Made by a program: the position numbers and the translations under genes
Notes under the pieces: generated by a model
What the model was told of the DNA's origin: nothing
The model's input: the letters and a program-made list of their open reading frames with translations, nothing else
Database searches by the model: none
Shown: in pieces, positions 1-24,585 of the stretch
Position numbering within the stretch: the stretch's first letter is position 1
Layout: the number at the start of each line of letters is the position of its first letter
Source: an uncultured Bacteroidia bacterium
Lineage (GTDB): Bacteria > Bacteroidota > Bacteroidia > Bacteroidales > CAJPTX01
Direction: 5' to 3'
NCBI GenBank assembly: GCA_963543925.1
Contig: CAUUCP010000001.1
Span: forward strand, 73,296 to 137,295
DNA: 64,000 nucleotides

Positions 1-174
1 GATGCCCTGTCTAAAACAGGGACTATTGGCACTATAGTTGTGTGAGTTTTTGGTTTGGTGATGGTGTGGATGGGCGATGAGGGCGATAGGGCGATGAGCG
101 GTAGAGTTATGAGAGCGATAGAGCGGCTTCTCTCCCCCCTCTCCCTTCCATTTTATTTATAGAGAACCTTAGTC

Positions 175-621: not shown

Positions 622-643
622 GGGGGGGAGACTTGGTGCTTTA

Positions 644-3145: not shown

Positions 3146-3146
3146 T

Positions 3147-3154
3147 TACCTTTG
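3147..3154 (+). promoter_or_regulatory. candidate Bacteroidota -7 promoter box (TAnnTTTG) for dnaN
   Basis: tacctttg is an exact TAnnTTTG match, 25 nt upstream of the dnaN ATG. Confidence 0.45.
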
Positions 3155-3178
3155 TGGGGAGTATAGAAAAACGATACG

Positions 3179-4390: not shown

Positions 4391-5217
4391 TGACAACACC
4401 TAGTACATTGGCTTGGCGTTCTAGTTCGTTGTCCAGTTCCTTGTTTGCAGAACTGGAGTTGCGTCGTCCGTTGCTTTTTTTTGATTTGGAGACTACGGGG
4501 ATCGATCCCGTGACTTCGCGCGTGTTGCAGATTGCGCTTTTGCAGGTATTGGAGGATGGGTCGTCTCGAGAATGGGATAGTTTGGTGAATCCTACAGTGC
4601 CTATTCCTCCGGAGACGACGGCGATACATGGGGTGACGGATGCGATGGTGGTTGATGCCCCTACTTTTCAGGAGCTTGCTCCAGTGTTAGCACCCATTTT
4701 CCAAGATTCGGACTTGGCGGGTTATAATTCTACGCGCTTTGATGTTCCGATGATCCTTGAGGAGTTTGCACGTGCACATATTTATTTAGATTTTTCGCAG
4801 CACGCTCTTCTTGACGCGCATCTTATCTTTACACAGAAGGAGCCTCGGACGCTTACGGCGGCTTATCGTTATTACTGCCAAGGGGAATTGGTTGATGCGC
4901 ACTCTGCCATGGCGGATACACGCGCTTCGGCGCAGGTCTTAATGGCGCAGCTCAAGCATTACACAGACCTTCCTTCGCAAGTAGAGTCGTTGTCGCTTTA
5001 TTGTAATAATGGACAGAAGATTTTGGACTTTTCTAACCGGCTTGGGTATAACGAGAAGGGGGAAATTGTCTTTAACTTTGGAAAGTACAAGGGGCAACAG
5101 GTGCGAGAGGTTTTTCGTCAGAACGACAGCTATTATGGTTGGATGATGCAGGCAGACTTTTCGGTTCAGGTGAAGGAGGTGATTTCGAAAATCTATAAGG
5201 AACTCCACAGTGCATAA
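4387..5217 (+). CDS. DnaQ-like 3'-5' exonuclease (DEDDh)
   Basis: ExoI FFDLETTG, ExoII YNSTRFDVPM and ExoIII HSAMADT are present. It overlaps the dnaN stop by 4 nt. Confidence 0.8.
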   Translation: MMTTPSTLAWRSSSLSSSLFAELELRRPLLFFDLETTGIDPVTSRVLQIALLQVLEDGSSREWDSLVNPTVPIPPETTAIHGVTDAMVVDAPTFQELAPVLAPIFQDSDLAGYNSTRFDVPMILEEFARAHIYLDFSQHALLDAHLIFTQKEPRTLTAAYRYYCQGELVDAHSAMADTRASAQVLMAQLKHYTDLPSQVESLSLYCNNGQKILDFSNRLGYNEKGEIVFNFGKYKGQQVREVFRQNDSYYGWMMQADFSVQVKEVISKIYKELHSA

Positions 5218-5247
5218 TGTAGTGTGGATGTAATTATTGGTAATAAG

Positions 5248-5282
5248 GCACCAGTTACTAGGTAATAGTGGCTGGTGCTTTT
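5248..5282 (+). terminator. rho-independent terminator after the exonuclease gene
   Basis: Stem gcaccag (5248-5254) pairs with ctggtgc (5272-5278), extended by act/agt, and is followed by tttt. Confidence 0.6.
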
Positions 5283-5304
5283 GTCATTATAGTGTAACGG
5301 GTTA

Positions 5305-5874
5305 ATGAAGATTATTCGATTCCTAGACTCTGGCGAGGTGGTGGTGTGCAGTGATACGTCACGTGCTAATCGTGGCGAGGTATATGTTTTTCCTGTGTCG
5401 GGGGTGTATGAGGTGACTCCGTGTGTTTATTTTCATGTTTGTCAGAATTCTCGCACATTGCCTCAGGGTGCGGCATTGGAGCGTTGTGTTGATGCGTATG
5501 GTTATGTCTTGCATATTGAAAATCAGAGCTATGCGAATAATCTAGAGGCTATGGCTCGGGTTTATAGTGCAGATCGTTCTATTATTGCTAGTGGGAGTGC
5601 TTTACTTCCTGATGGAGGGATAGAGGTCTTGGGCGCATACGAACTTGTTGTGGAGGCTGGTGGCGTGCGGTATGATCTGGCGTTACGAGGCTGGGAGAAG
5701 CTTGCCCATCGGGTTGCAGAGTTGCGGAGTTGGCTTACTTTGAATGCGGGGGATTGGCTTTTGTTCCCGTTATGTTTTTCATCAATAAAAATGCCACGTG
5801 TTGTATCTATTTTCTCTCGTATCTCGTTCTACGAAGAGAATCGTTTAGTACTTGACGAGTTATTTCGATCCTAA
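5305..5874 (+). CDS. hypothetical protein, possibly a degenerate FAH-fold (fumarylacetoacetate-hydrolase-like) protein
   Basis: 189-aa ORF. The C-terminal pattern ELVVEAGGVRYDLALRGW..LTLNAGDWLLFPL loosely resembles the FAH-family '..NGe....mif....L.pGDli.TGTP' motif, but the catalytic residues are not recognisable. Confidence 0.3.
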   Translation: MKIIRFLDSGEVVVCSDTSRANRGEVYVFPVSGVYEVTPCVYFHVCQNSRTLPQGAALERCVDAYGYVLHIENQSYANNLEAMARVYSADRSIIASGSALLPDGGIEVLGAYELVVEAGGVRYDLALRGWEKLAHRVAELRSWLTLNAGDWLLFPLCFSSIKMPRVVSIFSRISFYEENRLVLDELFRS

Positions 5875-5880
5875 TATTTC

Positions 5881-7557
5881 ATGTCAGAATCTATTCACGC
5901 CGTTTGTGGCGTTAGCGCACCGTTCTTTTCTAAAGAGGCTCGGGGATTGTTGTTGCAAATTATGGGTGAACAAGTGTCACTTATACATTTACAGACTCCC
6001 CCTTATGCCCATTTACACAACGAGTATTTTCTTTCTAGTGAGGAGATTGGGCGAGTTATTGATTTTGCAAGAGCGCAGCATCTTTTACAGGAGGATGCTC
6101 ATGGTCTTTTGCATTACACTCACTTGCATTTTTCCGTCCTTCTTTTACAGTTGGAGGAGTATTATGCTTCTCAATCTGTAGCGCATCGCTACTTGACGAG
6201 CACGGATTTGGAGTCTATTTTCTCCGATGATTTCTTCCAAGCGTCGCTCTATTACTTGCAACGTATATTTCATATTTTGCTTCGACGCGAACGTCACGCT
6301 TTGGCAGAAAAACCAGGGCGTATCCTTCTTCTTCGCTTGATGTCGCAGCTTTGGTTGTCGGTCTTTGAAACGCTTCCGGCTTTTGAGCAAAGTTCGCTCC
6401 CACTTCTTCAACTCTATTTTGTCTTGCGTGACAATCACTATCAGTTCGAAGTCGCGTATTTTCGTAAACAGCTTCAGACGTCGCCGTACCTCTTGGAGGT
6501 GTTGTCGCTTTTCTCTTGGGAGTATTCTCGGGCACAAGCTGGGAGTTTTCCTATTGATCTTCTTACGTTTGCCAAGAATATAGGTTTATCTCCTACGGAT
6601 ACCTCTTTACTTTGGTCTGCAGTAAGGGATTTGATGCGGTGGGTTGGTGGGTGTGATCCTCGGATAGCGGCGCGTTTGTCGTTGCTCCGTGAGGATTTTC
6701 AACGTACGGCATCTATCATTTTTCTACAGATAAAGAATGAGGATTATGCCTTGGGGCATTCTTGGGATGGGATGCTCTTTTCGGAGACGACCGAGGAAGA
6801 GCAGACTCCCCTGACCGAGATCGCTGCGGTATGTAAAGAGATTGAGGGGGATATGGAGGAGTATGATCCTGTAGACCAAGGTGCTTTTTTTGTTTTTATC
6901 GGGGCATCGGGACGTGGTCAACGCGATGCGGCGCGTGCTTTGCGGTATCAGCTTTCACAGATTGATGGTTGGCGTTATACGACGGGCTACTATGAGTGGG
7001 ATGTACAAAAGTTGTTGCATGCCCCTTGTACGGAATGGGAGGCTCGTTTGGCGCGTTATCCTCAGGGGGCGATTTATTTTTACAATTTCCCTCCGCTTGT
7101 CATGGCAGACCAAAAGGAAGAGGTTGAGACTTTGCGTGTGTTTTTGCAACGCGTGAGTGAGAACCTGATGGGGCGGATGTATATATTCGATTTCGTCTCT
7201 CCGACCTATATCCAACACTATCTTCCAGTGCTAGAATCGTTACCACTGTGGGTGATCCATTTTCCAGCTTATAGCAAGGCTTATTTGAAACATCATTTCA
7301 AGCAACTGGGGATAATGGCCGAGGTGGATATAGAGCCTACGGTCTATATCCGTTTGGGAGAATTGTATGAAAAGACGGCACCGTTATTCGATCATGGGAT
7401 TGCTGCAGACCTATTCGTTTATCAGCTTTTTGCGGAATCGCTTCAAAATATGTCGTTACGGGTGAAGGAGAACTATCTTAGAAGTGAGGTACTCCTCTCC
7501 TCTGCTATTACAGCCGAGGATTTGCGTGTGGCGCTGAATACAATCTTACACCTATAA
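5881..7557 (+). CDS. hypothetical protein with a C-terminal degenerate AAA+-like (CbbX/SpoVK-like) module
   Basis: 558-aa ORF starting 6 nt after the previous gene. FFVFIGASGRGQRDAARAL sits where a Walker A would be (Lys replaced by Gln), and AIYFYNFPPL sits where a Walker B would be. The N-terminal ~330 aa were not recognised. Confidence 0.35.
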   Translation: MSESIHAVCGVSAPFFSKEARGLLLQIMGEQVSLIHLQTPPYAHLHNEYFLSSEEIGRVIDFARAQHLLQEDAHGLLHYTHLHFSVLLLQLEEYYASQSVAHRYLTSTDLESIFSDDFFQASLYYLQRIFHILLRRERHALAEKPGRILLLRLMSQLWLSVFETLPAFEQSSLPLLQLYFVLRDNHYQFEVAYFRKQLQTSPYLLEVLSLFSWEYSRAQAGSFPIDLLTFAKNIGLSPTDTSLLWSAVRDLMRWVGGCDPRIAARLSLLREDFQRTASIIFLQIKNEDYALGHSWDGMLFSETTEEEQTPLTEIAAVCKEIEGDMEEYDPVDQGAFFVFIGASGRGQRDAARALRYQLSQIDGWRYTTGYYEWDVQKLLHAPCTEWEARLARYPQGAIYFYNFPPLVMADQKEEVETLRVFLQRVSENLMGRMYIFDFVSPTYIQHYLPVLESLPLWVIHFPAYSKAYLKHHFKQLGIMAEVDIEPTVYIRLGELYEKTAPLFDHGIAADLFVYQLFAESLQNMSLRVKENYLRSEVLLSSAITAEDLRVALNTILHL

Positions 7558-7602
7558 ATTGTGTACTATTGCGTGGCGATAACGTGGGGTAGACACGGGA
7601 AT

Positions 7603-8937
7603 ATGTTGGAGGCATCGGATTTTACGCGAGGGCGGATTACGCCTCAGATTATGAGGTTAGCGCTCCCTATTATGGGGACGGCCTTTATTCAGATGGCGTA
7701 TAATATGGCCGATTTTTACTGGATCGGTCACCTTAGTGGGCTCGCAGCGGCAGCGGTGGGCGCTATGGGTCTCTTTACGTGGTTGGGTCTCTCGTTGAGT
7801 TTTTTACCTAAGGTCGGAGCAGAGATCACTATCTCCCAGAGTATTGGGGCGCGTACCTATCAGCGTGCTATGCGCTATGCCCAGCATGCTCTTTTGTTAG
7901 CTCTTCTTCTTGGTTTGGCTTTTGGTCTTTTTCTTTTTGTGTTTCAGCGTCCGTTAGTTGCTTTTTTCACCTTTACCTCTCCAGAGGCTGTGCGTTATGC
8001 TGAGGATTATCTGGCGATTGTCTCTTTGGGTAGTCCTTTTGCCTTTTTGAATGCGACGTTCTTTGGGCTTTATAATGGTCGTGGGAAGTCTAATCTCGCA
8101 TTTTTAGCTAATGGGTCTGGGTTGTTGATGAACTTGATTTTAGATCCGTTGCTTATTGAGGGGTATCTATTTTTTCCTCGTCTAGAGGTTGTGGGTGCTG
8201 CGTGGGCTACGGATATTGCACAGGCGATAGTGACGTTGTTGTTCCTTCTCCTTAACGTGTCGCGTAAAGCTCCTTTTCATGGACTGTTTCGTAGTTTTCG
8301 TCTTTCACGTGCTTTTCTTGAGCGGATTGTACGCCTAGGTATCCCAGTTACCTTTCTGAATGGGTTATTTGCTTTTATCTCGTTGGTGATAGCCCGTCTT
8401 GTCGCTCGGTGGGGAGATCTCGGGGTGGCGGTGCAGTCGGTAGGTGCACAGATAGAGGCTATTTCTTGGATGACGGCAGGTGGTTTCTCTACAGCGCTCT
8501 CTAGTTTTGTGGGTCAGAATTGGGGCGCACACAACCTCGCTCGTATCAAGAAGGGATACCGTATTACGCTTACTTACATGCTCTCATTGGGTGGAGTAAC
8601 GACGTTGCTTTTTATGCTCTTTGGTGCTGAAATTATTGGCTTTTTTATCCCAGAGCCAGAGGCGCAAAGACTGGGGGGGGAGTATCTGTTTATCATCGGG
8701 ATTTCTCAAATCTTTATGATATTGGAGATTACCAATTCTGGAGTCTTCAATGGTATTGGGCGTACGACGCATCCTGCCGTGGTGGGCACGACATTTAATC
8801 TTTTGCGCATCCCACTTGGCTTGTGGTGGGGAGCGATTTGTTTGGAGGGGATTTGGTGGGGGATTACCGTGTCGAGTATTTTGAAAGGTCTTGTGCTTAC
8901 AGGGGTGCTTGTCTTCCTTTATCGTAAACGTCTTTGA
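7603..8937 (+). CDS. MATE-family multidrug/oligosaccharide efflux transporter
   Basis: About 12 TM helices with a MatE-like N-terminus ITPQIMRLALPIMGTAFIQMAYNMADFYWIGHLS. The ORF opens with GTG at 7561, and the first ATG at 7603 is used here. Confidence 0.8.
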   Translation: MLEASDFTRGRITPQIMRLALPIMGTAFIQMAYNMADFYWIGHLSGLAAAAVGAMGLFTWLGLSLSFLPKVGAEITISQSIGARTYQRAMRYAQHALLLALLLGLAFGLFLFVFQRPLVAFFTFTSPEAVRYAEDYLAIVSLGSPFAFLNATFFGLYNGRGKSNLAFLANGSGLLMNLILDPLLIEGYLFFPRLEVVGAAWATDIAQAIVTLLFLLLNVSRKAPFHGLFRSFRLSRAFLERIVRLGIPVTFLNGLFAFISLVIARLVARWGDLGVAVQSVGAQIEAISWMTAGGFSTALSSFVGQNWGAHNLARIKKGYRITLTYMLSLGGVTTLLFMLFGAEIIGFFIPEPEAQRLGGEYLFIIGISQIFMILEITNSGVFNGIGRTTHPAVVGTTFNLLRIPLGLWWGAICLEGIWWGITVSSILKGLVLTGVLVFLYRKRL

Positions 8938-9031
8938 GTGTGCACAATAAAAGCTAGGCAAAAGGGGTTATTACCAGACAAGTCGGTAGAGAGGAAACAA
9001 GAGGTAGTAACTAGGGTAAGCTTTATACACA

Positions 9032-10201
9032 ATGCGACGTTTCATACAGTTTGTGCTCTCGTTGGTTATCATGCTCTTCATCGGGGCATTTGGCGCGTGG
9101 TTAGCGCTTCGTTATTTCCCAGAATATTTTTCTATACAGACAGGTGCTAGTGTGCGCCCAGCACTCGGGGATACGCTGCGGTGTGCGAGTCCGCGTACCG
9201 ATTTTGAGCAGGCCTTTATCGCTGCGGCAGCGCAGGCCTCCCCTTCGGTGGTGCATGTGCATGTACAATCGATTATCGAGCGAGAGAGTCCCTATAAGGG
9301 CTCGATTTATGAGTTCTTTTTTGGGCCGCAACCCAATATTCAACAGCGCGTCTCTTCGTCGGGGTCAGGGGTTATCGTCTCTTCTGACGGATTGGTGATA
9401 ACCAACAATCACGTGGTGGCGGGGGCTAAGCGTTTGTCCGTTACTCTTACCAATCAAGAGGTTTTGTCTGCCGAGATCGTTGCGCGCGATCCTGCGATAG
9501 ACCTAGCGCTTTTGCGTGTGCATTCTTCCAAGCCTTTGCCAGCGATTCGTTTTGGCGAGGCGGATAGTTTGCGTGTGGGGAGTTGGGTCTTGGCAATTGG
9601 CAACCCGTTTGATTTGGAAACTACCGTCACGGCAGGTATTGTGAGTGCGAAGGCGAGGTCGTTGAATCTTCAATCTGGGCGGGTTGCTATCGAGTCATTT
9701 ATACAAGTTGACGCCGCGGTGAACCCAGGCAATAGTGGCGGGGCATTGGTAAATCTGCAAGGCGAGTTGGTGGGGATCAATACAGCCATTGCCTCGCCGA
9801 CGGGGTCATTCGCAGGCTATGCTTTTAGTATCCCTGAGAATATAGTGCGGGACTTCCTTGATAATGTAAAGGAACGTGCCCAGCTTTCTGAGCGTGGTAA
9901 AGTTGAGCGTGGTGTCTTGGGGGTGGTGCTCACAGAGCTTCGTCCACATCTTGCAAAGGCGTTGACCGATGGTAAGAAAGAGGGGGTGGTGATAGCTCAG
10001 GTTCGTGTGGGGAGTGCAGCTGCCGAGGCGGGCTTACAGCAAGGAGACGTTTTGGTCGCGATTGATGGTACGAGGTTGAAGTCTGTGTCGCAGGTCAACC
10101 GTCTTTTGGCAAGAAAGAGTCCTGGGACGAGGGTACGTGTGACCTACGTACGTGCCAAGGTAGAGAGTACAGTGGATGTAATCTTGAAAGCGAGTGAGTA
10201 A
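9032..10201 (+). CDS. htrA: HtrA/DegP-family serine protease (S1C) with a single PDZ domain
   Basis: N-terminal TM anchor, catalytic triad contexts TNNHV / DLALL / GNSGGAL, and one PDZ (GVVIAQVRVGSAAAEAGLQQGDVLVAIDG). Confidence 0.85.
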   Translation: MRRFIQFVLSLVIMLFIGAFGAWLALRYFPEYFSIQTGASVRPALGDTLRCASPRTDFEQAFIAAAAQASPSVVHVHVQSIIERESPYKGSIYEFFFGPQPNIQQRVSSSGSGVIVSSDGLVITNNHVVAGAKRLSVTLTNQEVLSAEIVARDPAIDLALLRVHSSKPLPAIRFGEADSLRVGSWVLAIGNPFDLETTVTAGIVSAKARSLNLQSGRVAIESFIQVDAAVNPGNSGGALVNLQGELVGINTAIASPTGSFAGYAFSIPENIVRDFLDNVKERAQLSERGKVERGVLGVVLTELRPHLAKALTDGKKEGVVIAQVRVGSAAAEAGLQQGDVLVAIDGTRLKSVSQVNRLLARKSPGTRVRVTYVRAKVESTVDVILKASE

Positions 10202-10775
10202 CGCTGTAAAAGCGGAGGATGAGGCGGCTTTTGGAATGTCGCCTACTCTCCTCTACAAGAGCCGATTGGGAATAGAGAAGGGGAGTCTGAGTTGGTTGGC
10301 GAAGTTCCTAGACGCGCACCGTGCTTTGGTTTATGCTTTGGTACAAGAGTATTACGTGCCTCCGTTGGATCTTCAAGGGCTGGTGCAGGTCGCCAATGTG
10401 GGGTTGCTTCATGCTTTGGAACAAGTGCTAGATAGTCGCTCGAGTGTTCGGTTTTATACCATGGTAGGGGGGGATATTCGTGCCGCTCTGAGCCGCTTTA
10501 TAGAGACAACGCATCGCGTTGAGAGGGTCTCCTATCTCTATCTAGGGCATTACGCGACCTTGGCGGGAGGTACGGAGGTACTCTTAGTTCGTGAACCGCT
10601 CCTTCATCATTGTAAGTTAACTATCGGAGATGAGATTCTTACGATCAATCACCAAGAGGTGCATTCTGTAGGCGATGTCAATGCTATGCTACAAGGTGTG
10701 AGTTCTGGAGAAGCGTTCTCGCTAAGTTATTTGCATGCGGGAGAATTGTTGCATGATTCTATGAGATGTGAATAA
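10194..10775 (+). CDS. hypothetical protein: N-terminal sigma-70 region-2-like segment plus C-terminal PDZ-like domain
   Basis: 193-aa ORF with a GTG start overlapping the htrA stop (alternative ATG at 10236). The C-terminus KLTIGDEILTINHQEVHSVGDVNAMLQGVSSGEAFSLSYLHAGELL is PDZ-like. The N-terminal similarity to sigma region 2 is by eye only. Confidence 0.45.
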   Translation: MSNAVKAEDEAAFGMSPTLLYKSRLGIEKGSLSWLAKFLDAHRALVYALVQEYYVPPLDLQGLVQVANVGLLHALEQVLDSRSSVRFYTMVGGDIRAALSRFIETTHRVERVSYLYLGHYATLAGGTEVLLVREPLLHHCKLTIGDEILTINHQEVHSVGDVNAMLQGVSSGEAFSLSYLHAGELLHDSMRCE

Positions 10776-10992
10776 ATCCTGTGGGAGTATAATACTAAGA
10801 CAGTGAACACGTTAATAGAGAGAAATGAGGTACGGTATGGCTTCCATTGCAACATTTAGGACAATTAGACGTTATAAAAGCCATAGAGAAAATAAGGAAT
10901 TTCTAAGAATGTGAGCGTTTTCGTGTATGAGAGTGTGTGTCTTGTTGTTCTAGTCATCTTTGTCGTTTTAATAACCCCTTAAGTATATCGGT

Positions 10993-11853
10993 ATGAGGCA
11001 ACTCAAAATCTCTAAGTCTATAACTAACCGCGAGAGCGCTTCGCTGGATAAATATCTGCAGGAGATCGGTAAGGAGGATCTTATTTCTGCAGAGGAGGAG
11101 GTCGAGCTCGCGCAACGTATTCGCAAAGGCGATCACGAGGCGCTGGAGAAGCTCACGCGTGCCAATCTCCGTTTCGTGGTTTCGGTGGCAAAACAATATC
11201 AAAATCAAGGGTTAACCCTCCCTGACCTTATCAACGAGGGTAACCTAGGGCTTATTCGTGCAGCGGAGAAGTTTGATGAAACCCGAGGGTTTAAGTTCAT
11301 CTCCTACGCAGTATGGTGGATTCGTCAATCGATCCTTCAGGCTTTGGCCGAACAGTCCCGTATCGTTCGTTTGCCGTTGAACCAAGTGGGGGCTTTGAAT
11401 AAGATCAACAAGGCTATCGCAAAGTTTGAACAGGAACAGGAGCGTGCCCCTTCGGTCGATGAGTTGGCAAAGGAGACCAATATGCCTAAGGAGAAGATCG
11501 CCGACAGTTTGCGGGTTTCGGGACGTCACGTTTCTATTGATGCGCCCTTTGTCGAAGGGGAAGAGAATAGTCTGTTGGACGTGCTCACGAATCCAGATTC
11601 CCCTAAGGCCGATAATACGCTCTTACAAGAAAGTCTCCGTAAGGAGATAGATCGCGCACTGGCTACTTTGGGAGATCGCGAGAGTGCTATCATACGTTCT
11701 TTCTTCGGTATTGGCTGTCCAGAACAGACCTTGGAAGAGATCTCGGAAAAGTTTAAGCTTACTCGTGAACGAGTGCGACAGATTAAGGAGAAGGCTATCC
11801 GCCGTCTTCGTCACTCCAGTCGTTCGAAGAATCTGAAAGCTTATTTAGGTTAG
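10993..11853 (+). CDS. rpoD: primary RNA polymerase sigma factor (Bacteroidota sigma-A type)
   Basis: 286 aa with regions 2-4 present ([51 protein letters not shown]) and no region 1.1. Confidence 0.9.
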
Positions 11854-11881
11854 TGGTGGGGTGTATTGGAAAAAACGAATA

Positions 11882-11919
11882 AGGCGATGCTTCCGAGGGT
11901 GGGAGCGTCGCCTTTTTTA
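11882..11919 (+). terminator. rho-independent terminator of rpoD
   Basis: Stem aggcgatgc (11882-11890) pairs with gcgtcgcct (11905-11913, one G-U pair) and is followed by a T6 run. Confidence 0.7.
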
Positions 11920-11980
11920 TTAGAGCGTTTGGAGGGGGGCGTGCGTCTTCGAACGTGTAATCCCTGTCGATATAAAGTGG

Positions 11981-12296
11981 GTAATAGTTGCCTATTTTGC
12001 CGCCTACCGCCCGCTCGTTCTCCCTCCATTACACACTACCACTTTAGAAAATCCTAAACGAGTAGTTTATACAACTTACTAGATAATACGGTATAAAAAT
12101 AATGAAATACGTCTATAATAGGGGCTATTTTTCTACCGAATTTACAGGGTATACAAAGGGTATACAAGCGGTCTACAAGGATGACAAAAGGATGTCAAAA
12201 AGGCACTACACACGATCTACCCCTATCCCACTCCGTAGGTAGTATAGCAATTTAGGAATATACAAAGATTTATACGCGATCCCAATCTCCTACCAG
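11981..12296 (+). repeat. copy A of a ~320-bp non-coding repeat element (inverted partner at 24251..24585)
   Basis: It aligns colinearly with the reverse complement of 24251-24585. This includes a 29-nt exact block (12019-12047) and a 15-nt exact block (12135-12149). Confidence 0.85.
12136..12224 (+). repeat. phased 11-bp direct-repeat array within copy A (about 8 units)
   Basis: Units: ccgaatttaca / gggtatacaaa / gggtatacaag / cggtctacaag / gatgacaaaag / gatgtcaaaaag / gcactacacac / gatctacccct. Confidence 0.75.
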
Positions 12297-13393: not shown

Positions 13394-14650
13394 ATGGAGC
13401 TTAAACGAGTCGTTGTGACGGGGTTGGGAGCACTCACCCCCATTGGGAATAACTTGGCAGAATACTGGGATGCGTTGAAGAACGGTCGTAGTGGCGCAGC
13501 TCCGATCCGTGGTTTTGATGCGAGCAAATTCAAGACCACCTTCGCTTGCGAGTTGAAGGGGTTTGATGGAGCGGCGCATTTCGATCGCAAGGAGATACGC
13601 AAACTCGATCTCTATTCCCAATATGCGTTGGTCGCTGCCGAGCAAGCCGTGCTGGATGCTGGCTTGTCGGCGGGAGAAGGGGTCAAGGCGGAGCGTGTTG
13701 GAGTTATCTGGGGGTCGGGGATCGGAGGTATACATACCTTCTGGAATGAAGCGGAGGAGTTCTTCAAGGGAGATGGTACGCCGCGCTTCAATCCGTTCTT
13801 TATCCCTAAGATGATCTCGGATATCGCGGCGGGGCTCATTGCGATGAAGTATGGCTTCCGCGGTCCAAACTATACCACGGTTTCGGCTTGTGCATCGTCT
13901 ACACACGCCTTGGTCGACGCTACGAATCTGATCCGTCTAGGCAAGGCTGACGTCTTCGTCTCGGGAGGATCTGAGGCTGCGATCAATCCGTCGGGACTCG
14001 GTGGTTTTAGTTCTATGCAAGCGCTCTCTACTCGGAACGATGATCCTGCAACTGCTTCTCGCCCCTTTGACAAAGACCGCGATGGCTTTGTACTGGGCGA
14101 AGGTGCTGGGGCGTTGATTCTCGAAGAGTATGAACATGCCAAAGCTCGCGGAGCTAAGATCTATGCAGAAATCGTCGGAACGGGCATGACAGCCGATGCG
14201 TATCACCTGACAGCACCTCACCCCGAGGGGTTGGGCGCCGCGGCGGTGATGCGTCTTGCGCTCGAAGAAGCGGGGATTCAACCCGAGGAGGTGGATTATA
14301 TCAACGTCCACGGGACCTCTACCCCAGCTGGCGATTTGCCAGAACTAAGAGCCGTGCAGAATGTCTTCGGTGAGGCTGCAAAGAAACTCAATATTAGTTC
14401 AACGAAGTCTATGACGGGGCATCTTCTAGGGGCTGCAGGTGCGATAGAGTCTGTGGCGTGTATCATGGCGATACAGCACTCTCTGATCCCACCGACCATC
14501 AATCTTCAGAACCGTGACGAGGCTATCGATCCCGAGTTGCAGTTGACGCCCAACAAAGCAGTTGAACGTAAGGTTAGGTATGCTCTTTCCAATACTTTTG
14601 GTTTTGGTGGGCATAACTCATCTTTAATATTCAAGGCTTACGAACTCTAG
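13394..14650 (+). CDS. fabF: 3-oxoacyl-ACP synthase II
   Basis: 418 aa with active-site context ACASS, HGTSTPAGD and GHLLGAAG. Confidence 0.9.
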   Translation: MELKRVVVTGLGALTPIGNNLAEYWDALKNGRSGAAPIRGFDASKFKTTFACELKGFDGAAHFDRKEIRKLDLYSQYALVAAEQAVLDAGLSAGEGVKAERVGVIWGSGIGGIHTFWNEAEEFFKGDGTPRFNPFFIPKMISDIAAGLIAMKYGFRGPNYTTVSACASSTHALVDATNLIRLGKADVFVSGGSEAAINPSGLGGFSSMQALSTRNDDPATASRPFDKDRDGFVLGEGAGALILEEYEHAKARGAKIYAEIVGTGMTADAYHLTAPHPEGLGAAAVMRLALEEAGIQPEEVDYINVHGTSTPAGDLPELRAVQNVFGEAAKKLNISSTKSMTGHLLGAAGAIESVACIMAIQHSLIPPTINLQNRDEAIDPELQLTPNKAVERKVRYALSNTFGFGGHNSSLIFKAYEL

Positions 14651-14696
14651 TAAATTGGGTCGTTCGGTCACGTTATTTCGGACGACCTTCCGTAGG

Positions 14697-14738
14697 GTCT
14701 GTTCTTTTCTCTCTAGGAGAGGAGAACAGACTTTTTTT
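14697..14738 (+). terminator. strong hairpin plus T7 run between fabF and rnc (terminator or rnc leader stem-loop)
   Basis: gtctgttct (14697-14705) pairs with agaacagac (14723-14731), followed by T7 (14732-14738) and then the rnc ATG at 14739. A second hairpin lies upstream: ggtcgttcg (14658-14666) pairs with cggacgacc (14679-14687). Confidence 0.6.
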
Positions 14739-15410
14739 ATGCCTTTGCTGCGCGAGCATTTTGGAATAAAAAAGGTTCACACCTCTAGCTATTACGTCTC
14801 TGCGCTCACGCACAGCTCTTTTTATGCCGAACACGCACAGGTTACAGCCTCACTAAACGAACGCCTCGAGTTCTTAGGAGATGCTGTCCTCGAGTTGGTC
14901 GTTTCCTCTTATCTCTACGAACGTTTCCCTTCAATAGACGAAGGAAAGTTGACCCGTTTTCGTGCCAACATTGTTTGCCGAGAGAGTTTGAATGCCTTAG
15001 CCAACTCTATACAATTGGGAAGTTACCTGCGGGCAAGCTTTCCAGTGAAACAATTGAGTATTGATGCTTTAGGTAATGCCTACGAGGCGCTTGTAGGGGC
15101 TATCTACCTAGATCAAGGTTTTGAGAAGACCCAGCGTATACTAGTCAAACACCTATTAGAGACTTCGCTTATCGATTGGACGCTCTTGCAGGGCGAGCTC
15201 TACGACTATCGTTCTTTGGTACTCCACTGGTCGCAGCGCGAGAAGAAGAAGGTAGACTTCGTCTATAACGAGATTAGTCACTCCCCTTCTCTATTCGAGT
15301 GTTTAATTTACGTAGACGATGTCATCGCAGCCACCGCGAAGGGGCGTAACAAGAAGCTCGCAGGACAAGAGGCTTGCAAATTGCTTGTCGAACAGTATGA
15401 GCTTAATTAG
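14739..15410 (+). CDS. rnc: ribonuclease III
   Basis: Signature NERLEFLGDAVLE and a dsRBD-like C-terminus. The ORF opens with TTG at 14655, and the first ATG at 14739 is used here. Confidence 0.85.
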   Translation: MPLLREHFGIKKVHTSSYYVSALTHSSFYAEHAQVTASLNERLEFLGDAVLELVVSSYLYERFPSIDEGKLTRFRANIVCRESLNALANSIQLGSYLRASFPVKQLSIDALGNAYEALVGAIYLDQGFEKTQRILVKHLLETSLIDWTLLQGELYDYRSLVLHWSQREKKKVDFVYNEISHSPSLFECLIYVDDVIAATAKGRNKKLAGQEACKLLVEQYELN

Positions 15411-15969
15411 GAACTTCGATGCGGAGATCTCCAGTCTCTAACCAATTCCGCGCCACAGAGTAGGGATTGTAGATGATTCGCTGGTTGGAACTCCCACGGA
15501 AAAGAAGCTCCTCCCCTCCATTCACTTCATTGATTATATCTTGGTCGCGAATCTCTTTTATAAAGGGACCGTCGACGAGGACGTCTATGTATTCCAAAGG
15601 TGCAAGTAATACAGACGACCGAGCAAGGGACTCTAGAGTATATCCCGTATAGCACCAGATATTTGCCCCCGTACGTCCCTTGAGAATCTTTAATAGAGCT
15701 AGTAAGCCGCTAGGATTGAAGAATGGATCTCCTCCAGAGAGCGTAATGCCCGAAAGAAGAGGATTGTCCAAGATGTTCTGTATATGCTTCTCCAGCACCT
15801 CGTCTGTGAGCAACTGACCAACCGCTGGATTCCAACTCTCTGGATTTTGACAAAAAGGACACTGGTGGCGACAACCAGAGAGATAGAACGAATAGCGTAG
15901 CCCATCGCCGTCAATAATCGTCTCCTCATACACGCGCAACAAACGTAGTCCGTAATCCGCTAGTTTCAT
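15403..15969 (-). CDS. nrdG: anaerobic ribonucleoside-triphosphate reductase activating protein (radical SAM)
   Basis: CRHQCPFCQN cluster, about 188 aa, directly downstream of nrdD. Confidence 0.85.
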   Translation of the reverse strand: MKLADYGLRLLRVYEETIIDGDGLRYSFYLSGCRHQCPFCQNPESWNPAVGQLLTDEVLEKHIQNILDNPLLSGITLSGGDPFFNPSGLLALLKILKGRTGANIWCYTGYTLESLARSSVLLAPLEYIDVLVDGPFIKEIRDQDIINEVNGGEELLFRGSSNQRIIYNPYSVARNWLETGDLRIEVPN

Positions 15970-16059
15970 TTTTCAGTACCCCTCCTCCTGAGCTTAAACC
16001 CAAGATAAAGTTACCAACTTCCCAAGAAAGAACAAAACCGTGCTACATGCTACGCATAG

Positions 16060-16095
16060 AAAAAGCGGATATCTCTCCAAAGAGGGGTATCCGCT
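16060..16095 (-). terminator. hairpin plus U-run between nrdD and nrdG (partial terminator or attenuator)
   Basis: On the minus strand, agcggata pairs with tatccgct and is followed by ttttt. The stem spans plus-strand coordinates 16064-16095 and the A-run spans 16060-16064. Confidence 0.5.
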
Positions 16096-16135
16096 TCTTC
16101 TTTTATAGCCTCCTTCTGAGGCGGCTCGCTAAGGA

Positions 16136-18610
16136 CTAATCCTGCGCATTGTGTTTCACACGATCTCGCTCCTCAGCTTGCTTGGCATTGTTCCAGCTTT
16201 CTAAGTTGCCAGTCAAGTAGCCTGTAATACGACGAATGCGCGAGATCTGATCCGAGCCACATACAGGACACTTGTCCAAGATTACACCACGGAAACCACA
16301 TCCACGACAGGTATCTACGGGGTGATTTATCGACCCATAGCCAATCCCATTGTCGATCATCGTTTTTACAACAGTCGCAATGACGCTAGAGTTTTTCTTT
16401 GCCTCACCATCTAGTTCTACGTAGGTGATGTGCCCGCCAAGCGTTAGGGCATGGAAGGGAGCTTCCTTCCGAATCTTCTCTTGGATGCTAATTGGCTCTC
16501 GTACGTCAATATGGAAGGAATTGACGTAGTATTCACGATCCGTCACCCCGGGGATTACTCCGAACTTCTCCCTATCCATGCGGGTAAAGCGTCCAGAGAG
16601 CCCTTCGGCTGGTGTTGCGATCACGGAGTAGTTCAGATGATAACGCTCCTTGTATTCTCGTGCGACGCGATTCATGAGTTGTAGAGCCTCGTAGAGCGTA
16701 TCCCACGACTTTTGATTCTTGCCATGCCCCTCGCCAAAGAGTGCCACCATGGCGTTATGCCCGCCAATAAAGCCGATAGCTAGCGTCCCCTGTGTGATAA
16801 CCTCAGCCACGTGCTCCTCGGGCTTTAATGCCCCGCCTCCCTTCCAAACATCGTTGGTCATCATGAAGGGGAATTGGAAGGCATACGCGGTCTGCTGGAA
16901 ACGGAAGCGTTCGTAGAGCTGGTCTGCGACCAAGCGACTCTTCTCCTCCAGCTTTTCCATGAAGTAGATCTTAGCTAGGTTCTGAATCTCTTCCGAGGTT
17001 GCACCAAGACCATCACGTTCCGCAGCGCGACGCGCCTCTATTGCCAAACGAGGCATATTGATCGATGTGAAGGAGAGGTTACCACGTCCAATGGAGGTGC
17101 GAGGACCGTTGATGTTCTCGTAGACACGTGTGCGACATCCCATCGTTGCGACTTCGTGGAAGTAACGTTTGGGGTCGTTGGCATCCCAGTCGGGATCTGC
17201 GTTGAATGGCGCATCCAAGTTTAGGAAGTTGGGGAAGAGGGCATGCGCCGTGGTCTTACAAGCCTCTACAAAAAGATCGAAGTTTGGTGTTTCAAAGGTG
17301 ATCCGTCCCTCCAACGCCCCCTTCCAATCCTTGAGCGCCTTGGCTAGGTCGGCATCGCTGAAACTCACCCCCTTCTTTAGCTTAAAGATCTGAATTGGGA
17401 AGATGGGCGTCTCCTTTTTTCCGAGTCCTTCTTCCGTAGCCTTGAGCAAGGAGCGCATCAACATACGCCCTTCTGGCGATGTATCTGTGCCGTAGTTTAT
17501 TGAACTGAAGACGACCTGATTTCCCCCACGCGAGTGCATCGTATTCAGGTTGTGAAGGAAGCCCTCCATCGCTTGGTGGGTATCGCTATTGGTCTGACGG
17601 ATAGCCTCTCGTACGACGAGCTGTAACGTGAACTCCGAGAGTTGCATATCCAGCGAGCGCGTCAGTTCGTCCAGTACCGTCACCGTTGCATGATCACTCC
17701 CCAGAGCCACCTCATGCTCCCAGAGCGTTTTTCGTAGAAGCGCCGTTAGGTTCTCTACCTTTTCTTCTTCAAAGAATTGTTCCTGTTGCTGTTGGTAAGC
17801 TTGCACGATCCCTTTGGCGATGTGCTTGTGGAATGACTTGCGTACCCCTGGTGCCATAAAGAAGTCAAAGGCTGGTATCGCCTGTCCCCCATGCTGCTCG
17901 TTCTGGTTGGTCTGAAAGATGATCGTGGCCAAGGTCGCATAGCTGTGGATGCTCTGCGGGGGGCGTACCGAACCATTCTTGGTTAGGAAGCCATGCTCAT
18001 AGAGTGCTCCCAGATCATACTGGAGGCATGTTGTGGTCTTTGTGGGGTAATAATCGAGGTCGTGGATGTGGATCTCTCCTGTCTCATGTTCTCTCCCATA
18101 CAGAGACTTCAGACGTCCACTCACTGCGTCTTTGCGTGCGAGCTCGGAAGCAAAGGTCATCATCTGACCGGCAGGCGTGTGTGCCGACATGTTGGCATTG
18201 CTCCGATTGAGCTCGCAAGGGACGACGTTCACGATCTGGTCAAACATCCCCTTCAAGTTCATGCGTTCCCATCGTGCGAGATCGCGATCGTGACGGTAGT
18301 GAATGTAGCGTTGCGCTACATGTGGGTTAAAGCGCATGAGCTCGTGCTCTACACGATCCTGAATCTGTTCCACGGTCAGGCGTCCTGACATGCAAATCTC
18401 GGCACTGACGTTACGTACGATAACGTTGATGACGGAAAGATCGGGTTTCAGACCGTCAGCTACGTAAGACTTGCTGATCGCATTCTCTATGCGACTTGTA
18501 TCAAAAGGGACTTCCGTACCATCTCGTTTGACAACTGTGTACTGCGAAAGCGTAGACATAGGTTCGACGGGATGGCTCGAAGGCTGAATGATTAATTTCA
18601 GAGTGTCCAT
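16136..18610 (-). CDS. nrdD: anaerobic ribonucleoside-triphosphate reductase (class III)
   Basis: 824 aa with an ATP-cone N-terminus (VVKRDGTEVPFD), a C-terminal Zn site CRGC...CPVC and the glycyl-radical motif RRITGYL. Confidence 0.9.
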   Translation of the reverse strand: MDTLKLIIQPSSHPVEPMSTLSQYTVVKRDGTEVPFDTSRIENAISKSYVADGLKPDLSVINVIVRNVSAEICMSGRLTVEQIQDRVEHELMRFNPHVAQRYIHYRHDRDLARWERMNLKGMFDQIVNVVPCELNRSNANMSAHTPAGQMMTFASELARKDAVSGRLKSLYGREHETGEIHIHDLDYYPTKTTTCLQYDLGALYEHGFLTKNGSVRPPQSIHSYATLATIIFQTNQNEQHGGQAIPAFDFFMAPGVRKSFHKHIAKGIVQAYQQQQEQFFEEEKVENLTALLRKTLWEHEVALGSDHATVTVLDELTRSLDMQLSEFTLQLVVREAIRQTNSDTHQAMEGFLHNLNTMHSRGGNQVVFSSINYGTDTSPEGRMLMRSLLKATEEGLGKKETPIFPIQIFKLKKGVSFSDADLAKALKDWKGALEGRITFETPNFDLFVEACKTTAHALFPNFLNLDAPFNADPDWDANDPKRYFHEVATMGCRTRVYENINGPRTSIGRGNLSFTSINMPRLAIEARRAAERDGLGATSEEIQNLAKIYFMEKLEEKSRLVADQLYERFRFQQTAYAFQFPFMMTNDVWKGGGALKPEEHVAEVITQGTLAIGFIGGHNAMVALFGEGHGKNQKSWDTLYEALQLMNRVAREYKERYHLNYSVIATPAEGLSGRFTRMDREKFGVIPGVTDREYYVNSFHIDVREPISIQEKIRKEAPFHALTLGGHITYVELDGEAKKNSSVIATVVKTMIDNGIGYGSINHPVDTCRGCGFRGVILDKCPVCGSDQISRIRRITGYLTGNLESWNNAKQAEERDRVKHNAQD

Positions 18611-18629
18611 GGCGTTTAATTTACGGTGA

Positions 18630-18637
18630 CAAAGCTA
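18630..18637 (-). promoter_or_regulatory. candidate -7 promoter box (TAnnTTTG) for nrdD
   Basis: Minus strand tagctttg, 19 nt upstream of the nrdD ATG. Confidence 0.45.
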
Positions 18638-19116
18638 GCAAAAAGACAATCCTCTCCCCGCTTTTGTTGAGACAAATACCCATAAAAAGTAACGAACAAG
18701 AACCTACACTCCTTGCCCGATCTTGCTAAATATCCTACTAGCAAAGTACTTCCCTATGGATGCTGTGGGGAAAATTGGGTAGTGAAAAATTGCACCAGAC
18801 GCACCCTTCAGAAATCCTAAAGAAAATCCCAGCGCGGAGAGAAAATGACTACCGTCCGAGCAACGCTAGCGGGCGGAATCATACCCAGTTTGAGAGATAC
18901 TTGCTGGGGATGAGAAAAGCCATTCTGCATCACAAGATTATTATACATTGCTGTGTTAATACAATGAACAAAGAGCTCTTGGTCACCTATTTATACGACA
19001 CTATTTGCGTATTAACGAATCGATAAAAAAAGAGACTACTACTGGGGATTGTCTCGCATTTCATCTCTATTTTACTAACTCCCCAATGCTCTTTTTTCCC
19101 TCTAAGGACAATTGCC

Positions 19117-19124
19117 TACTTTTG
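19117..19124 (+). promoter_or_regulatory. candidate -7 promoter box (TAnnTTTG) for the lipoprotein-lpxH pair
   Basis: tacttttg lies 16 nt upstream of the ATG at 19140. This supports the trimmed start. Confidence 0.45.
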
Positions 19125-19139
19125 GTACATAAAAGCAAT

Positions 19140-19871
19140 ATGATGCGAATCTACTTTTTCGGTCTTCTTTTTTTCCCCCTTTTCTTTGGCATGGCTTGTC
19201 GTCCCGCACCGAAAACTACGCTCTGCGTGCAAGATGCCACACAGCATCCTTGTAGTTTCGAGTATGCCATCCTCCGACGCCCCTACACCCCTACGGACTC
19301 CACTTCCCGAGTCCACTACCTCCCTCACGACTCCACTATGCTCACCCTTCATCTTCAGGAGCCTACCTTCGTCGCTGTCCGTACCCACAATACAGAACAG
19401 ATCTACCTCCTCCTTCTCGCACCTAACGAGAATGCCCACCTCGCAGTGCGCCCACGAGGTTATCATGTGACGGGCTCTGTAGAGAGTGCTCGCCTGCTGG
19501 GGATCTACCAGATCTTACAATCGTTTAACGACTCTGTGGCTTGGCTCAATCAACGACAAGCTTGGGTCACGCTACGGGACACTCTCCCCCTCTCTGGCGA
19601 GTGCCCCTCCCCCTACGAACCATTTCGGGCTGCCTATGACTCTTTGCGTATACGCGCCCAAGAAGGCCTCATACGCTTCATTATAGAGAATCCTTACTCC
19701 AAGGCTAACCTTCTCGCCTTGTCCGCAGAATTTGCCCCCAACCAGCGTTTTTTTGAAACAAACAAGCAGCGAGCCTTTGCTAGAGAAATCCTTCGTCTCC
19801 AAACAGACTATTACCAAGAGGTTGATTTTGCCCAACAACTCCTCAGAGAATATGACCACACGGATGAATAA
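19140..19871 (+). CDS. hypothetical lipoprotein
   Basis: ORF 19005..19871 trimmed to MMRIYFFGLLFFPLFFGMAC, which is a signal peptide with a lipobox Cys. No family was recognised. Confidence 0.55.
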   Translation: MMRIYFFGLLFFPLFFGMACRPAPKTTLCVQDATQHPCSFEYAILRRPYTPTDSTSRVHYLPHDSTMLTLHLQEPTFVAVRTHNTEQIYLLLLAPNENAHLAVRPRGYHVTGSVESARLLGIYQILQSFNDSVAWLNQRQAWVTLRDTLPLSGECPSPYEPFRAAYDSLRIRAQEGLIRFIIENPYSKANLLALSAEFAPNQRFFETNKQRAFAREILRLQTDYYQEVDFAQQLLREYDHTDE

Positions 19872-20658
19872 CCCTGAGCGGCAGCGGCTCTACTTTGCCT
19901 CGGACTTCCACCTAGGGTTGGAAACGGATACGCCGGCACGTAAGCGAGAGGCGATCATCGTCGCCTGGTTACGCGCCATTCGCCCTACGACCCATTCGCT
20001 CTATCTGTTGGGCGATATATTTGATTTTTGGTGGGAATATCGTCGTGTGGTGCCCAAGGGCTTTGTGCGCTTCCTTGCAGCGCTTGCCGACTTTACGGAT
20101 GCGGGAATTCCTGTCCATATTTTTACGGGCAACCACGACGTTTGGATGTTTGATTATTTAGAAAAGGAGCTCTCGGTACACGTACATCGACATGCCGAGA
20201 CCTGCTCCTTTTTCGGTCGGGAATTCTACCTCTGCCACGGCGACGGGCTAGGGGCGACCTCCCTGCCCTTCTGCTTGATGCGCGCGGCTTTTCACTCTTC
20301 ATTCCTTCAGTGGCTTTTTGCGCACCTTGTACACCCCGATGCGGCGCTGCGCTTCGGACACGCGTGGTCTCGCCATAACCGTTATGCTAAGAGTTTTCAC
20401 CACACCTTTCGTGGCGATAACGAGCCCGTTGCACAATTTGCTCACCGACACTATCGCGCGACGGGCACGCCCTTCTACCTCATGGGACACCTCCATATCG
20501 CTACCCTCCACGCTCTCGCCCCCGCTGGCGCGTTGCTTATCTTGGGCGACTGGCTCACGCAGTATACCTTCGCCTCTCTAGATGAAAAAGCCTTACGCTT
20601 AGAACAATTTCATCCAGAGGATGGGTCAACGACTCTCCTCGCCACGTTGGAGTTCTAG
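19864..20658 (+). CDS. lpxH: UDP-2,3-diacylglucosamine hydrolase
   Basis: Metallophosphoesterase motifs LYFASDFHLG, GDIFDFWWEY and GNHD. The ATG at 19864 overlaps the upstream stop (ATGAATAA); an alternative ATG is at 19852. Confidence 0.8.
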   Translation: MNNPERQRLYFASDFHLGLETDTPARKREAIIVAWLRAIRPTTHSLYLLGDIFDFWWEYRRVVPKGFVRFLAALADFTDAGIPVHIFTGNHDVWMFDYLEKELSVHVHRHAETCSFFGREFYLCHGDGLGATSLPFCLMRAAFHSSFLQWLFAHLVHPDAALRFGHAWSRHNRYAKSFHHTFRGDNEPVAQFAHRHYRATGTPFYLMGHLHIATLHALAPAGALLILGDWLTQYTFASLDEKALRLEQFHPEDGSTTLLATLEF

Positions 20659-24193: not shown

Positions 24194-24201
24194 CAAAAGT
24201 A
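24194..24201 (-). promoter_or_regulatory. candidate -7 promoter box (TAnnTTTG) for parC-dapF
   Basis: Minus strand tacttttg, 24 nt upstream of the parC ATG. Confidence 0.45.
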
Positions 24202-24250: not shown

Positions 24251-24585
24251 CTGGTAGGAGATGGGGGGCTTATAAATCTTTGTGTATTCCTAAATAGAGT
24301 ATACTCCCTACGGGGAGGGATAGGGTAGAGTGGGTGTAGAGTCATTTTGTCATCCTTTTGTCATCTATGTAGAGTTTATGTAGAGTTTATGTAGAGTCTA
24401 TGTAGACCCCTTGTAGACCCTGTAAATTCGGTGGGAAAACAGCCTCTATTATGCGTATTCCATTATTTCTATGCTACTTTATTTAGTAGTCTGTATAGAG
24501 ATAAACTTTAGGATTTCCTAAAGTGGTAGTGTGTAATGGAGGGAGAAAGATCGGGCGTTAGGTGGAGGAATAGGCAGCCTATTAC
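24251..24585 (-). repeat. copy B of the ~320-bp non-coding repeat element (inverted relative to copy A)
   Basis: Its reverse complement is colinear with 11981-12296. Exact blocks lie at 24518-24546 and 24418-24432. Confidence 0.85.
24323..24431 (+). repeat. phased 11-bp direct-repeat array within copy B (about 10 units)
   Basis: Units start at 24323, 24334, 24345, 24356, 24367, 24378, 24389, 24400, 24411 and 24421: gggtagagtgg / gtgtagagtca / ttttgtcatcc / ttttgtcatct / atgtagagttt / atgtagagttt / atgtagagtct / atgtagacccc / ttgtagaccc / tgtaaattcgg. Confidence 0.8.

Follow-up and report, generated by a model that had tools for sequence, protein, structure and literature searches.

An uncultured Bacteroidales genome that encodes a short RpoD (286 aa) and a PorE-type protein of the type IX secretion system contains, within the 64-kb stretch analyzed here (64,000 nucleotides; hereafter, the window), two copies of a non-coding element of about 330 bp. 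Copy A is located between the convergent genes rpoD and purN, and copy B, in inverted orientation, between a TIGR01212 radical-SAM gene (tRNA modification) and parC; the 12-kb interval that separates them encompasses purN, acpP, fabF, rnc, nrdG, nrdD, an open reading frame (ORF) for a lipoprotein-like protein, lpxH, dapF, and parC. Both copies have the same orientation relative to the upstream gene, beginning 128 nt past the stop codon of rpoD in the case of A and 74 nt past that of the radical-SAM gene in the case of B (about 70-130 nt in the preliminary description of this locus), and copy B lies upstream of the parC promoter box, as originally placed.

When copy A was compared to the window using blastn, the only non-self match was copy B, with 75.4% identity over 341 columns (E=5.6e-61), so that the colinear inverted pair reported in the preliminary description is confirmed; in the global alignment, 252 of the 340 columns are identical (74%), very close to the three-quarters that had been estimated by eye. 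The colinear inverted arms joining the two copies were also recovered by a separate repeat search, and copy A scores E=3e-102 against the family profile (nhmmer), with which no third copy was detected in the window. The coordinates of the exact blocks of 29 and 15 nt shared by the two copies proved correct, and for either block shuffled sequences give an expectation of 0. Weak A-B similarity, which had been overlooked, extends ~35 nt beyond 12296 in A (to about 12335) and beyond 24251 in B, and alignment with two relatives that lack the element (denoted L005 and L007) suggests that the insert at copy B reaches about 24215.

The element consists of a leader of ~165 nt, a tandem array of 11-nt units, previously unnoticed, and a tail of ~75-110 nt (Table 1). 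The leader holds three palindromic sites, namely, two AATAG-N3/4-CTATT motifs ~135 bp apart and a near-perfect 8-2-8 palindrome (CTTTAGGAAATCCTAAAG), and additionally a hypervariable block and an AT-rich stretch; a 7-6-7 palindrome, ACTTTAG-GAAATC-CTAAAGT, is present in the element as well. The register of the array is exact over 74-107 nt, or 7-10 units, in A, B, and the copies in two conspecific contigs (L002 and L004). The B array comprises, in order, two units beginning with GGGTCTACA, three units RACTCTACATA, and two units GATGACAAAAK, followed by GACTCTACACC and CACTCTA. One further in-register unit, AATAYACAAAG, is found in the tail, the best-conserved end of which is ..CCCNATCTCCTACCAG; TCTCCTACCAG is invariant across the five aligned tails. 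No ORF is common to the two copies, the 63-aa ORF at 11866..12057 being present in A only, as noted at the outset; the short ORFs of the copies have no Pfam match, and the reading frame is broken because the array unit is 11 nt long, so that a small protein was rejected as a candidate product.

Table 1 Coordinates of the element, its parts, and adjacent features in the window
Feature	Position	Strand	Basis
Copy A, entire element (leader, 11-nt array, tail)	11981..12296	+	blastn, nhmmer, global alignment
Copy B, entire element, inverted relative to A	24251..24585	-	blastn, nhmmer
Leader palindromic site 1, AATAG-N4-CTATT	A 11983..11996; B 24569-24583	+ (A)	Sequence reading; present in all six leaders
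29-nt block, identical in A and B, putative gene-conversion tract	A 12019..12047; B 24518-24546	+ (A), - (B)	Exact match, haplotypes, run-length test
Palindrome CTTTAGRAAATCCTAAAS, perfect 8-2-8 in B	A 12042..12059; B 24506-24523	+ (A)	Five hairpin pairs invariant in six leaders
AT-rich leader spacer with conserved AAATAATGRAAT block	12060..12116	+	Six-leader alignment
Leader palindromic site 2, AATAG-GGG-CTATT	A 12117..12129; B 24438-24450	+ (A)	Complementary to site 1, ~135 bp away
15-nt block, identical in A and B	A 12135-12149; B 24418-24432	+ (A), - (B)	Exact match
A array, 7 units in exact 11-nt register (GGGTATACAAA, GGGTATACAAG, CGGTCTACAAG, GATGACAAAAG, GATGTCAAAAA, GGCACTACACA, CGATCTAC...)	12147..12220	+	TRF period 11, register table
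B array, 9 units in 11-nt register	24326..24420	-	TRF period 11 (score 75), direct-repeat search, register table
Tail: hairpin-like block CCCTATCCC..CCGTAGG, in-register unit AATATACAAAG, most conserved end ..CCCAATCTCCTACCAG (as in A)	A 12221..12296; B 24251-24325	+ (A)	Tail alignments
Strong intrinsic terminator of rpoD, upstream of copy A	11881..11914	+	15-pair stem, then T run
parC Bacteroidetes-type -7 box TACTTTTG, downstream of copy B	24194..24201	-	Conserved in relatives
GC-skew sign-change zone, between the copies	14468..19000		Cumulative G-C maximum at 14468, plateau to ~19 kb

In copy B of another conspecific lineage (L016:4950-5054), the first leader palindromic module is tandemly duplicated (CTAACAGGCTGCCTATTTC ... 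GTAACGGGCTGCCTGTTTC). The spacer upstream of nrdD, midway between A and B, contains a weak match to the leader palindrome (CCTTCAGAAATCCTAAAG, 3 mismatches; 18805-18822, plus strand), which is probably a coincidence given that chance alone would yield ~0.24 such matches. At the left edge of the window (72-125) is a short tandem repeat with a period of 8-9 nt (GGGCGATGA / GCGATAGA, 3-6 copies) that is unrelated in sequence to the 11-nt arrays.

Conspecific contigs from other samples, namely, ERZ28574679, ERZ28574658, ERZ27248747, and SRR33858004, were identified through exact-protein look-ups, five of them covering site A (L001-L004 and L015) and three covering site B (L014, L016, and L017). 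In rpoD, these contigs are 96.5-97% identical to the window at the nucleotide level; for parC, porE, and the radical-SAM gene, the range is 89-92%. At the rpoD site, the element is present in all five contigs, and in the lineage represented in sample SRR33858004, both loci are occupied (A in L001 and L015, B in L016 and L017), which implies that both copies predate the divergence of these lineages. The 12-kb interval is not inverted in any assembly seen, and the loci are stable and syntenic. The leaders of the orthologous copies share 72-93% identity with A and the tails 75-78%, whereas the flanks outside the element reach 85-91%. Thus, the element diverges as fast as its flanks or faster, which indicates that overall purifying selection is absent. 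The fastest-changing part is the array, in which both the number and the sequence of the units differ between strains: L004 carries 10 units, the units in L015 are of the form GATGTACAAAG, and in L002 most of the units are replaced by ACGTTGATAGA with the 11-nt register kept. Most of the conspecific contigs end inside the element (four of the five at A, in the leader or the array, and two of two at B), and those with ends inside the element or at its edge are L001, L003, L004, L014, L015, L016, and L017. Counted over six contigs that reach site A, five do so. In SRR33858004, two A-site contigs stop and restart inside the array, an interruption that is sufficient on its own to account for the assembly break; the element probably breaks short-read assemblies of this species near the terminus.

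The preliminary description took the near-perfect blocks within a diverged background as a sign of selection on an RNA or a protein-binding platform. Our comparison of the conspecific copies argues against this interpretation. The A-B mismatches are indeed distributed non-uniformly, the longest identical run spanning 30 columns (P=0.008, column shuffling). The 29-nt block within this run varies more among conspecific copies than any other part of the leader and occurs as four haplotypes: one shared by both copies in the window (TTCTCCCTCCATTACACACTACCAC), one in L003 and L004 that differs from the window's copy A at four positions, one in L001 and L002 (TCTTCACGCACAGCGTATACTAYAAC), and one in L016, that is, copy B of SRR33858004 (CCTTATACACATAGTGCCTACCGCC). 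Copy B in the window carries the A-lineage haplotype, whereas copy B of the other lineage, in L016, does not. Taken together, the outlying run length, the hypervariability, and the A-lineage haplotype in the window's copy B point to interlocus gene conversion. On the simplest reading, which presumes that L001 and L016 belong to one genome, the 29-nt block would be a recent A-to-B conversion tract of ~40-70 nt rather than a selected motif.

Beyond the species, two relatives, L005 and L007 (82-85% ParC identity), have the same gene order, and in them neither site carries the element; the spacers measure 217 and 129 nt, as against 473 nt in the window at one site, and 319 nt as against 537 nt at the other. 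Neither a recognizable progenitor sequence at either site nor an inverted pair analogous to A and B was found in these sister species. Given that the interval between the copies consists of housekeeping genes in the same order as in the element-less relatives, we rejected the idea of one transposon with A and B as its ends; the copies are two separate insertions or duplications into spacers. The spacer between the radical-SAM gene and parC also harbors a hairpin resembling repetitive extragenic palindromic (REP) sequences (CGGACGCACACGATAGGCGTCCGTAYAA), twice in L005 (9824-9851 and 9913-9940) and once in L007, and seems prone to receiving small insertions.

Searches of larger collections were likewise negative. 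Two degenerate patterns, one from the leader and one from the tail, each fitting all known copies, retrieved no related match from 185,579 GTDB species genomes, and one degenerate pattern had no match in the JGI metagenomes; a looser second pattern yielded six JGI matches, all of which were dismissed as chance occurrences within AT-rich coding sequence. Three pattern scans of IMG/VR were empty, and there was no blastn match among phages (INPHARED) or plasmids (PLSDB), so that a phage or plasmid origin found no candidate source in these three collections. Judging from the collections searched, this species-level lineage is the only one to carry the family. The preliminary description had anticipated that a lack of further copies and of conservation in relatives would count against its interpretation, and this is largely what we observe, the exception being the retention of both copies in the lineage of L001/L015 and L016/L017.

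The apparent restriction of the family to two copies, inverted and 12 kb apart across a zone where replication forks probably meet (see below), is what would be expected of a one-off segmental duplication of intergenic sequence, for example, through template switching or ectopic repair at fork fusion, with no mobile ancestry. The lack of terminal inverted repeats and of clear target-site duplications, along with the failure to find the family elsewhere, would fit this explanation as well. Nevertheless, the absence of a recognizable progenitor at either site in the relatives, and the density of palindromes and phased repeats, which sets the element apart from ordinary spacer DNA, make such an origin fairly unlikely in our assessment.

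We considered whether the element could function as RNA. Searching Rfam produced no matches in the window at the gathering threshold, and over the copies themselves, with E values up to 10 allowed, only chance-level scores (E>=6, 9-17 bits), so that no known RNA family could be assigned. The sense strands are predicted to fold no more stably than shuffled sequences (z-scores of +0.56 for A and -0.98 for B), and the antisense values are inconsistent (-0.11 and -2.57). The RNAalifold consensus of the six leaders is weak (-11.7 kcal/mol). Although leader sites 1 and 2 are complementary in 95.5% of the alignment cells, covariation in the six leaders does not exceed the controls, with 302 of 500 shuffles reaching the observed score, and we found neither thermodynamic nor covariation support for a conserved structure. 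The Bacteroidetes -7 box has the consensus TAnnTTTG, which does not occur on either strand within 11981-12296 or 24251-24585. Because the Rfam, folding, covariation, and -7 box tests are all negative, an independent structured RNA gene is unlikely.

A different kind of non-coding RNA, arising from an unrecognized promoter or as a read-through transcript of rpoD and the radical-SAM gene, and acting as a small RNA or as an unstructured repeat sponge for an RNA-binding protein, also seems to us doubtful. Such a role would be in line with the co-orientation of both copies with the upstream gene at a distance of 74-128 nt and with the array's CA/A-rich sense strand, for which little structure is predicted, as in the protein-sponge RNAs, of which CrcZ and CsrB are known examples; one stem position, moreover, changes from U-A through U-G to C-G among the copies. 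Apart from the negative tests above, however, the 15-pair terminator between rpoD and copy A, the replacement of array units between strains, and conservation that does not exceed that of the flanks argue against it. The 8-2-8 palindrome scores as terminator-like in copy B.

The copies bracket a switch of gene strand and GC skew that the preliminary description had missed. ORFs of 150 aa or more lie exclusively on the plus strand at 518-11853 and exclusively on the minus strand at 24659-63838, mixed orientation being confined to the region between the copies; the skew ranges from +0.10 to +0.29 in the first 14 kb, is close to 0 at 15-19 kb, and is negative beyond. The plus-strand genes at 19.0-20.6 kb have a skew of -0.25 and -0.16, and purN, on the minus strand, lies within the region of positive skew; hence, the change is not a coding-strand effect. 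Converging gene orientation combined with a plus-to-minus change of skew indicates the replication terminus, and in L005 and L007, the strand and skew switch is located at the same genes, nrdD/nrdG. We conclude that the zone between the copies is probably the terminus. The end of copy A falls 2.2 kb left of the skew maximum and the start of copy B 5-10 kb right of it, each copy being co-oriented with its replication arm; this is the topology of a fork trap, which is also expected of any co-oriented gene-like element or replication-oriented insertion.

The fork traps, Tus-Ter of E. coli and RTP-Ter of B. subtilis, are comparable to A and B in that mirror-oriented non-coding sites flank the point where the forks meet. 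By analogy, the arrays and palindromes could bind a host protein and serve as polar fork barriers or as a terminus-organizing, centromere-like site, a possibility that we regard as very unlikely. Besides the bracketing of the skew maximum and the conservation of the switch, which is not a coding-strand artefact, it draws on the phased 11-bp array, a known protein-binding design, and on the limitation of the fork-trap proteins Tus and RTP to four clades, such that other systems could exist (PMC6549158). However, L005 and L007 share the terminus while lacking both the element and an analogous inverted pair, the array units differ among conspecific strains, and drift in the element is no slower than in the flanks. 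Tus or RTP binds Ter sites of 23-30 bp, whereas the element is missing in the sister species and lacks sequence conservation between strains; the copies contain no E. coli Ter consensus, no tus or rtp gene was found among the window ORFs scanned, and the skew switch has no convincing dif match close to it. The neighborhood encodes no candidate binding protein, the ORF at 19005-19871 having a lipoprotein-like appearance, and with two copies, the match in orientation is a 1-in-2 event. The specific scenario in which the mirror-oriented phased arrays would be platforms for a novel host protein, forming a recently acquired polar fork trap or a terminus-positioning, centromere-like site, strikes us as highly improbable.

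In its architecture, the element is closest to BrickBuilt of Porphyromonas gingivalis, an intergenic element with a leader, a spacer-less minisatellite, and a tail, in which the repeat number varies between strains at conserved loci; BrickBuilt has a very narrow host range and no transposase remnant, is present in 19 copies per genome, and consists of 23-nt units flanked by 12-nt terminal inverted repeats (GAGACCTTCGCA / TGAAAGGTCTC) that match IS5-family ISPg elements (PMC4596501). The two share the Bacteroidales host, the intergenic location, the leader-array-tail organization, the variable number of repeats, the narrow range, and the lack of a transposase remnant, but differ in that our element has an 11-nt unit, no terminal inverted repeats, and two known copies. 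Allowing up to 2 mismatches, the GAGACCTTCGCA-type terminal repeat of BrickBuilt occurs in the sequence at chance frequency and never in copies A or B. Thus, BrickBuilt is the closest described element in terms of architecture, and its defining features are absent here.

The initial statement that terminal inverted repeats and a transposase are lacking held up: the best end matches of A, B, and the copy in L002 score 6.5-10.5, compared to a mean of 6.8 and a maximum of 10-13 for shuffles, that is, at the level of chance, and among the window ORFs scanned, there is no transposase, recombinase, or relaxase. No described Rfam, insertion sequence, or MITE (miniature inverted-repeat transposable element) family was matched among those tested, and having no terminal inverted repeats, the element is not a classical MITE. 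Similarly to REP sequences, bacterial interspersed mosaic elements, and PATE-type elements (IS200/IS605-related), the element is short, intergenic, and devoid of terminal inverted repeats, and contains hairpin motifs; the orientation of these repeats can follow the direction of replication, which is comparable to the case of A and B. These families, however, consist of 20-40-nt hairpins or carry left-end and right-end hairpins at their two ends, and are present in many copies, in contrast to a 330-bp element with an internal minisatellite and two known copies. The AATAG..CTATT hairpin motif is located at the 5' end and in the middle of the element and not at its 3' end, and no Y1 transposase is visible in the window.

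A different resemblance, in design, is to plasmid protein-assembly sites. The iteron arrays of parC/ParR in plasmid R1 and those upstream of stbA in R388 and R46, like the array of our element, consist of head-to-tail, exact 11-bp repeats next to AT-rich DNA and palindromes. StbA binds the repeats upstream of its gene. Because the period is exactly 11 bp, the units lie on one face of the helix. In the oriT-stbA spacer of R46 (L018, NC_003292), we located two arrays of 11-bp direct repeats, at 20318-20370 and 20427-20489 (4.5 and 5.6 copies; unit AGTACATCAAA/TACATCAAAAA), similar in composition to units of the element such as GGTATACAAAG and GATGACAAAAG. R1 parC is reported to comprise two five-fold iteron sets bound by ParR (PMC2241845). 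The plasmid arrays are directly upstream of parR or stbA, in two sets of about five, whereas the element has a single array and no such adjacent gene, and comparison with plasmids detected no sequence homology. The element resembles plasmid protein-assembly sites in design and is not a member of their family.

These likenesses raise the question of whether A and B could be still-active cis sites (comparable to att, origin of transfer (oriT), or transposon ends) that are served in trans by an integrase, relaxase, or transposase encoded elsewhere, the 11-bp units being arm-type or accessory sites and the 7-6-7 palindrome the core. The combination of a palindromic core, an AT-rich stretch, and 11-bp direct repeats is reminiscent of the lambda P' arm and of the IncN/IncW oriT-stb region, including the R46 arrays that we checked directly, and the orientation relative to replication, with n=2, would fit single-strand transposons. 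Nonetheless, activity of this kind is unlikely, considering the lack of a recombinase, relaxase, or transposase among the window ORFs scanned, the absence of homologs from the phage, plasmid, and viral collections, and the stability and synteny of the loci in every assembly seen, with the 12-kb interval never inverted.

The interpretation we prefer, which we hold with about even confidence, is that A and B represent an orphaned DNA repeat, restricted to this lineage and resembling in its construction a protein-binding cis site of mobile DNA, and that they drift without a present function in the host. Both would be old, fixed copies of a non-coding module whose design, with palindromic sites, an AT-rich spacer, and helically phased 11-bp direct repeats, suggests a cis-acting protein-assembly site that may have originated in mobile DNA, where plasmid centromeres, oriT sites, and recombinase arms are of this kind. 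The copies would each have landed in an intergenic spacer near the replication terminus after the split from the relatives at 82-85% ParC identity and before the sampled conspecific lineages diverged, the second copy possibly arising by trans-mobilized insertion or by a one-off ectopic duplication. The module most likely is an orphan given that no partner gene is found nearby. The array turns over, in a manner consistent with replication slippage or unequal exchange, the leader and tail drift at an approximately neutral rate, and a patch exchanged between the copies by gene conversion would have left the 29-30-nt identical block.

Several observations weigh against this scenario. The lack of terminal inverted repeats, of a clear target-site duplication, and of any coding remnant leaves mobility unproven; no consistent direct repeats were found at the ends of the copies, the boundaries of which are imprecise, and the "empty" sites in L005 and L007 are too diverged to align. 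Furthermore, the symmetrical placement of an orphan repeat around the skew switch would have to be a coincidence, and both copies have been retained while the neighboring genes diverged by about 3-10% at the nucleotide level. Several short blocks, AATAG..CTATT, the CTTTAGGAAnTCCTAAAG palindrome, AAATAATGRAAT, GAATTTRCAG, and TCTCCTACCAG, are present in every copy; this retention could reflect function, although, with few lineages, it does not go beyond the neutral expectation. Finally, the count of two copies refers to the 64-kb window, and the genome-wide number could differ.

Two other genes in the window deserve mention. A 568-aa protein encoded on the minus strand at 44320-46026 contains a methyl-accepting chemotaxis (MCPsignal) domain (E=3e-38), unusual for Bacteroidales. 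Directly 5' of rpoD, a 193-aa ORF on the plus strand (10194-10775), conserved beside rpoD in the conspecific contigs, shows weak matches to sigma-70 region 2 and PDZ domains, an odd pairing.

The element described here adds modestly to the known interspersed non-coding repeats of bacteria and offers a clear example of how near-perfect blocks within a diverged repeat can come from gene conversion between paralogs rather than from selection. It also marks a well-defined, conserved switch of skew and gene strand in an uncultured Bacteroidales clade. To our knowledge, no replication termination system has been described in the phylum of the host; if the arrays were to bind a protein and stall forks, which the present evidence makes unlikely, a termination-type system would for the first time be on record beyond the few clades that possess Tus or RTP.

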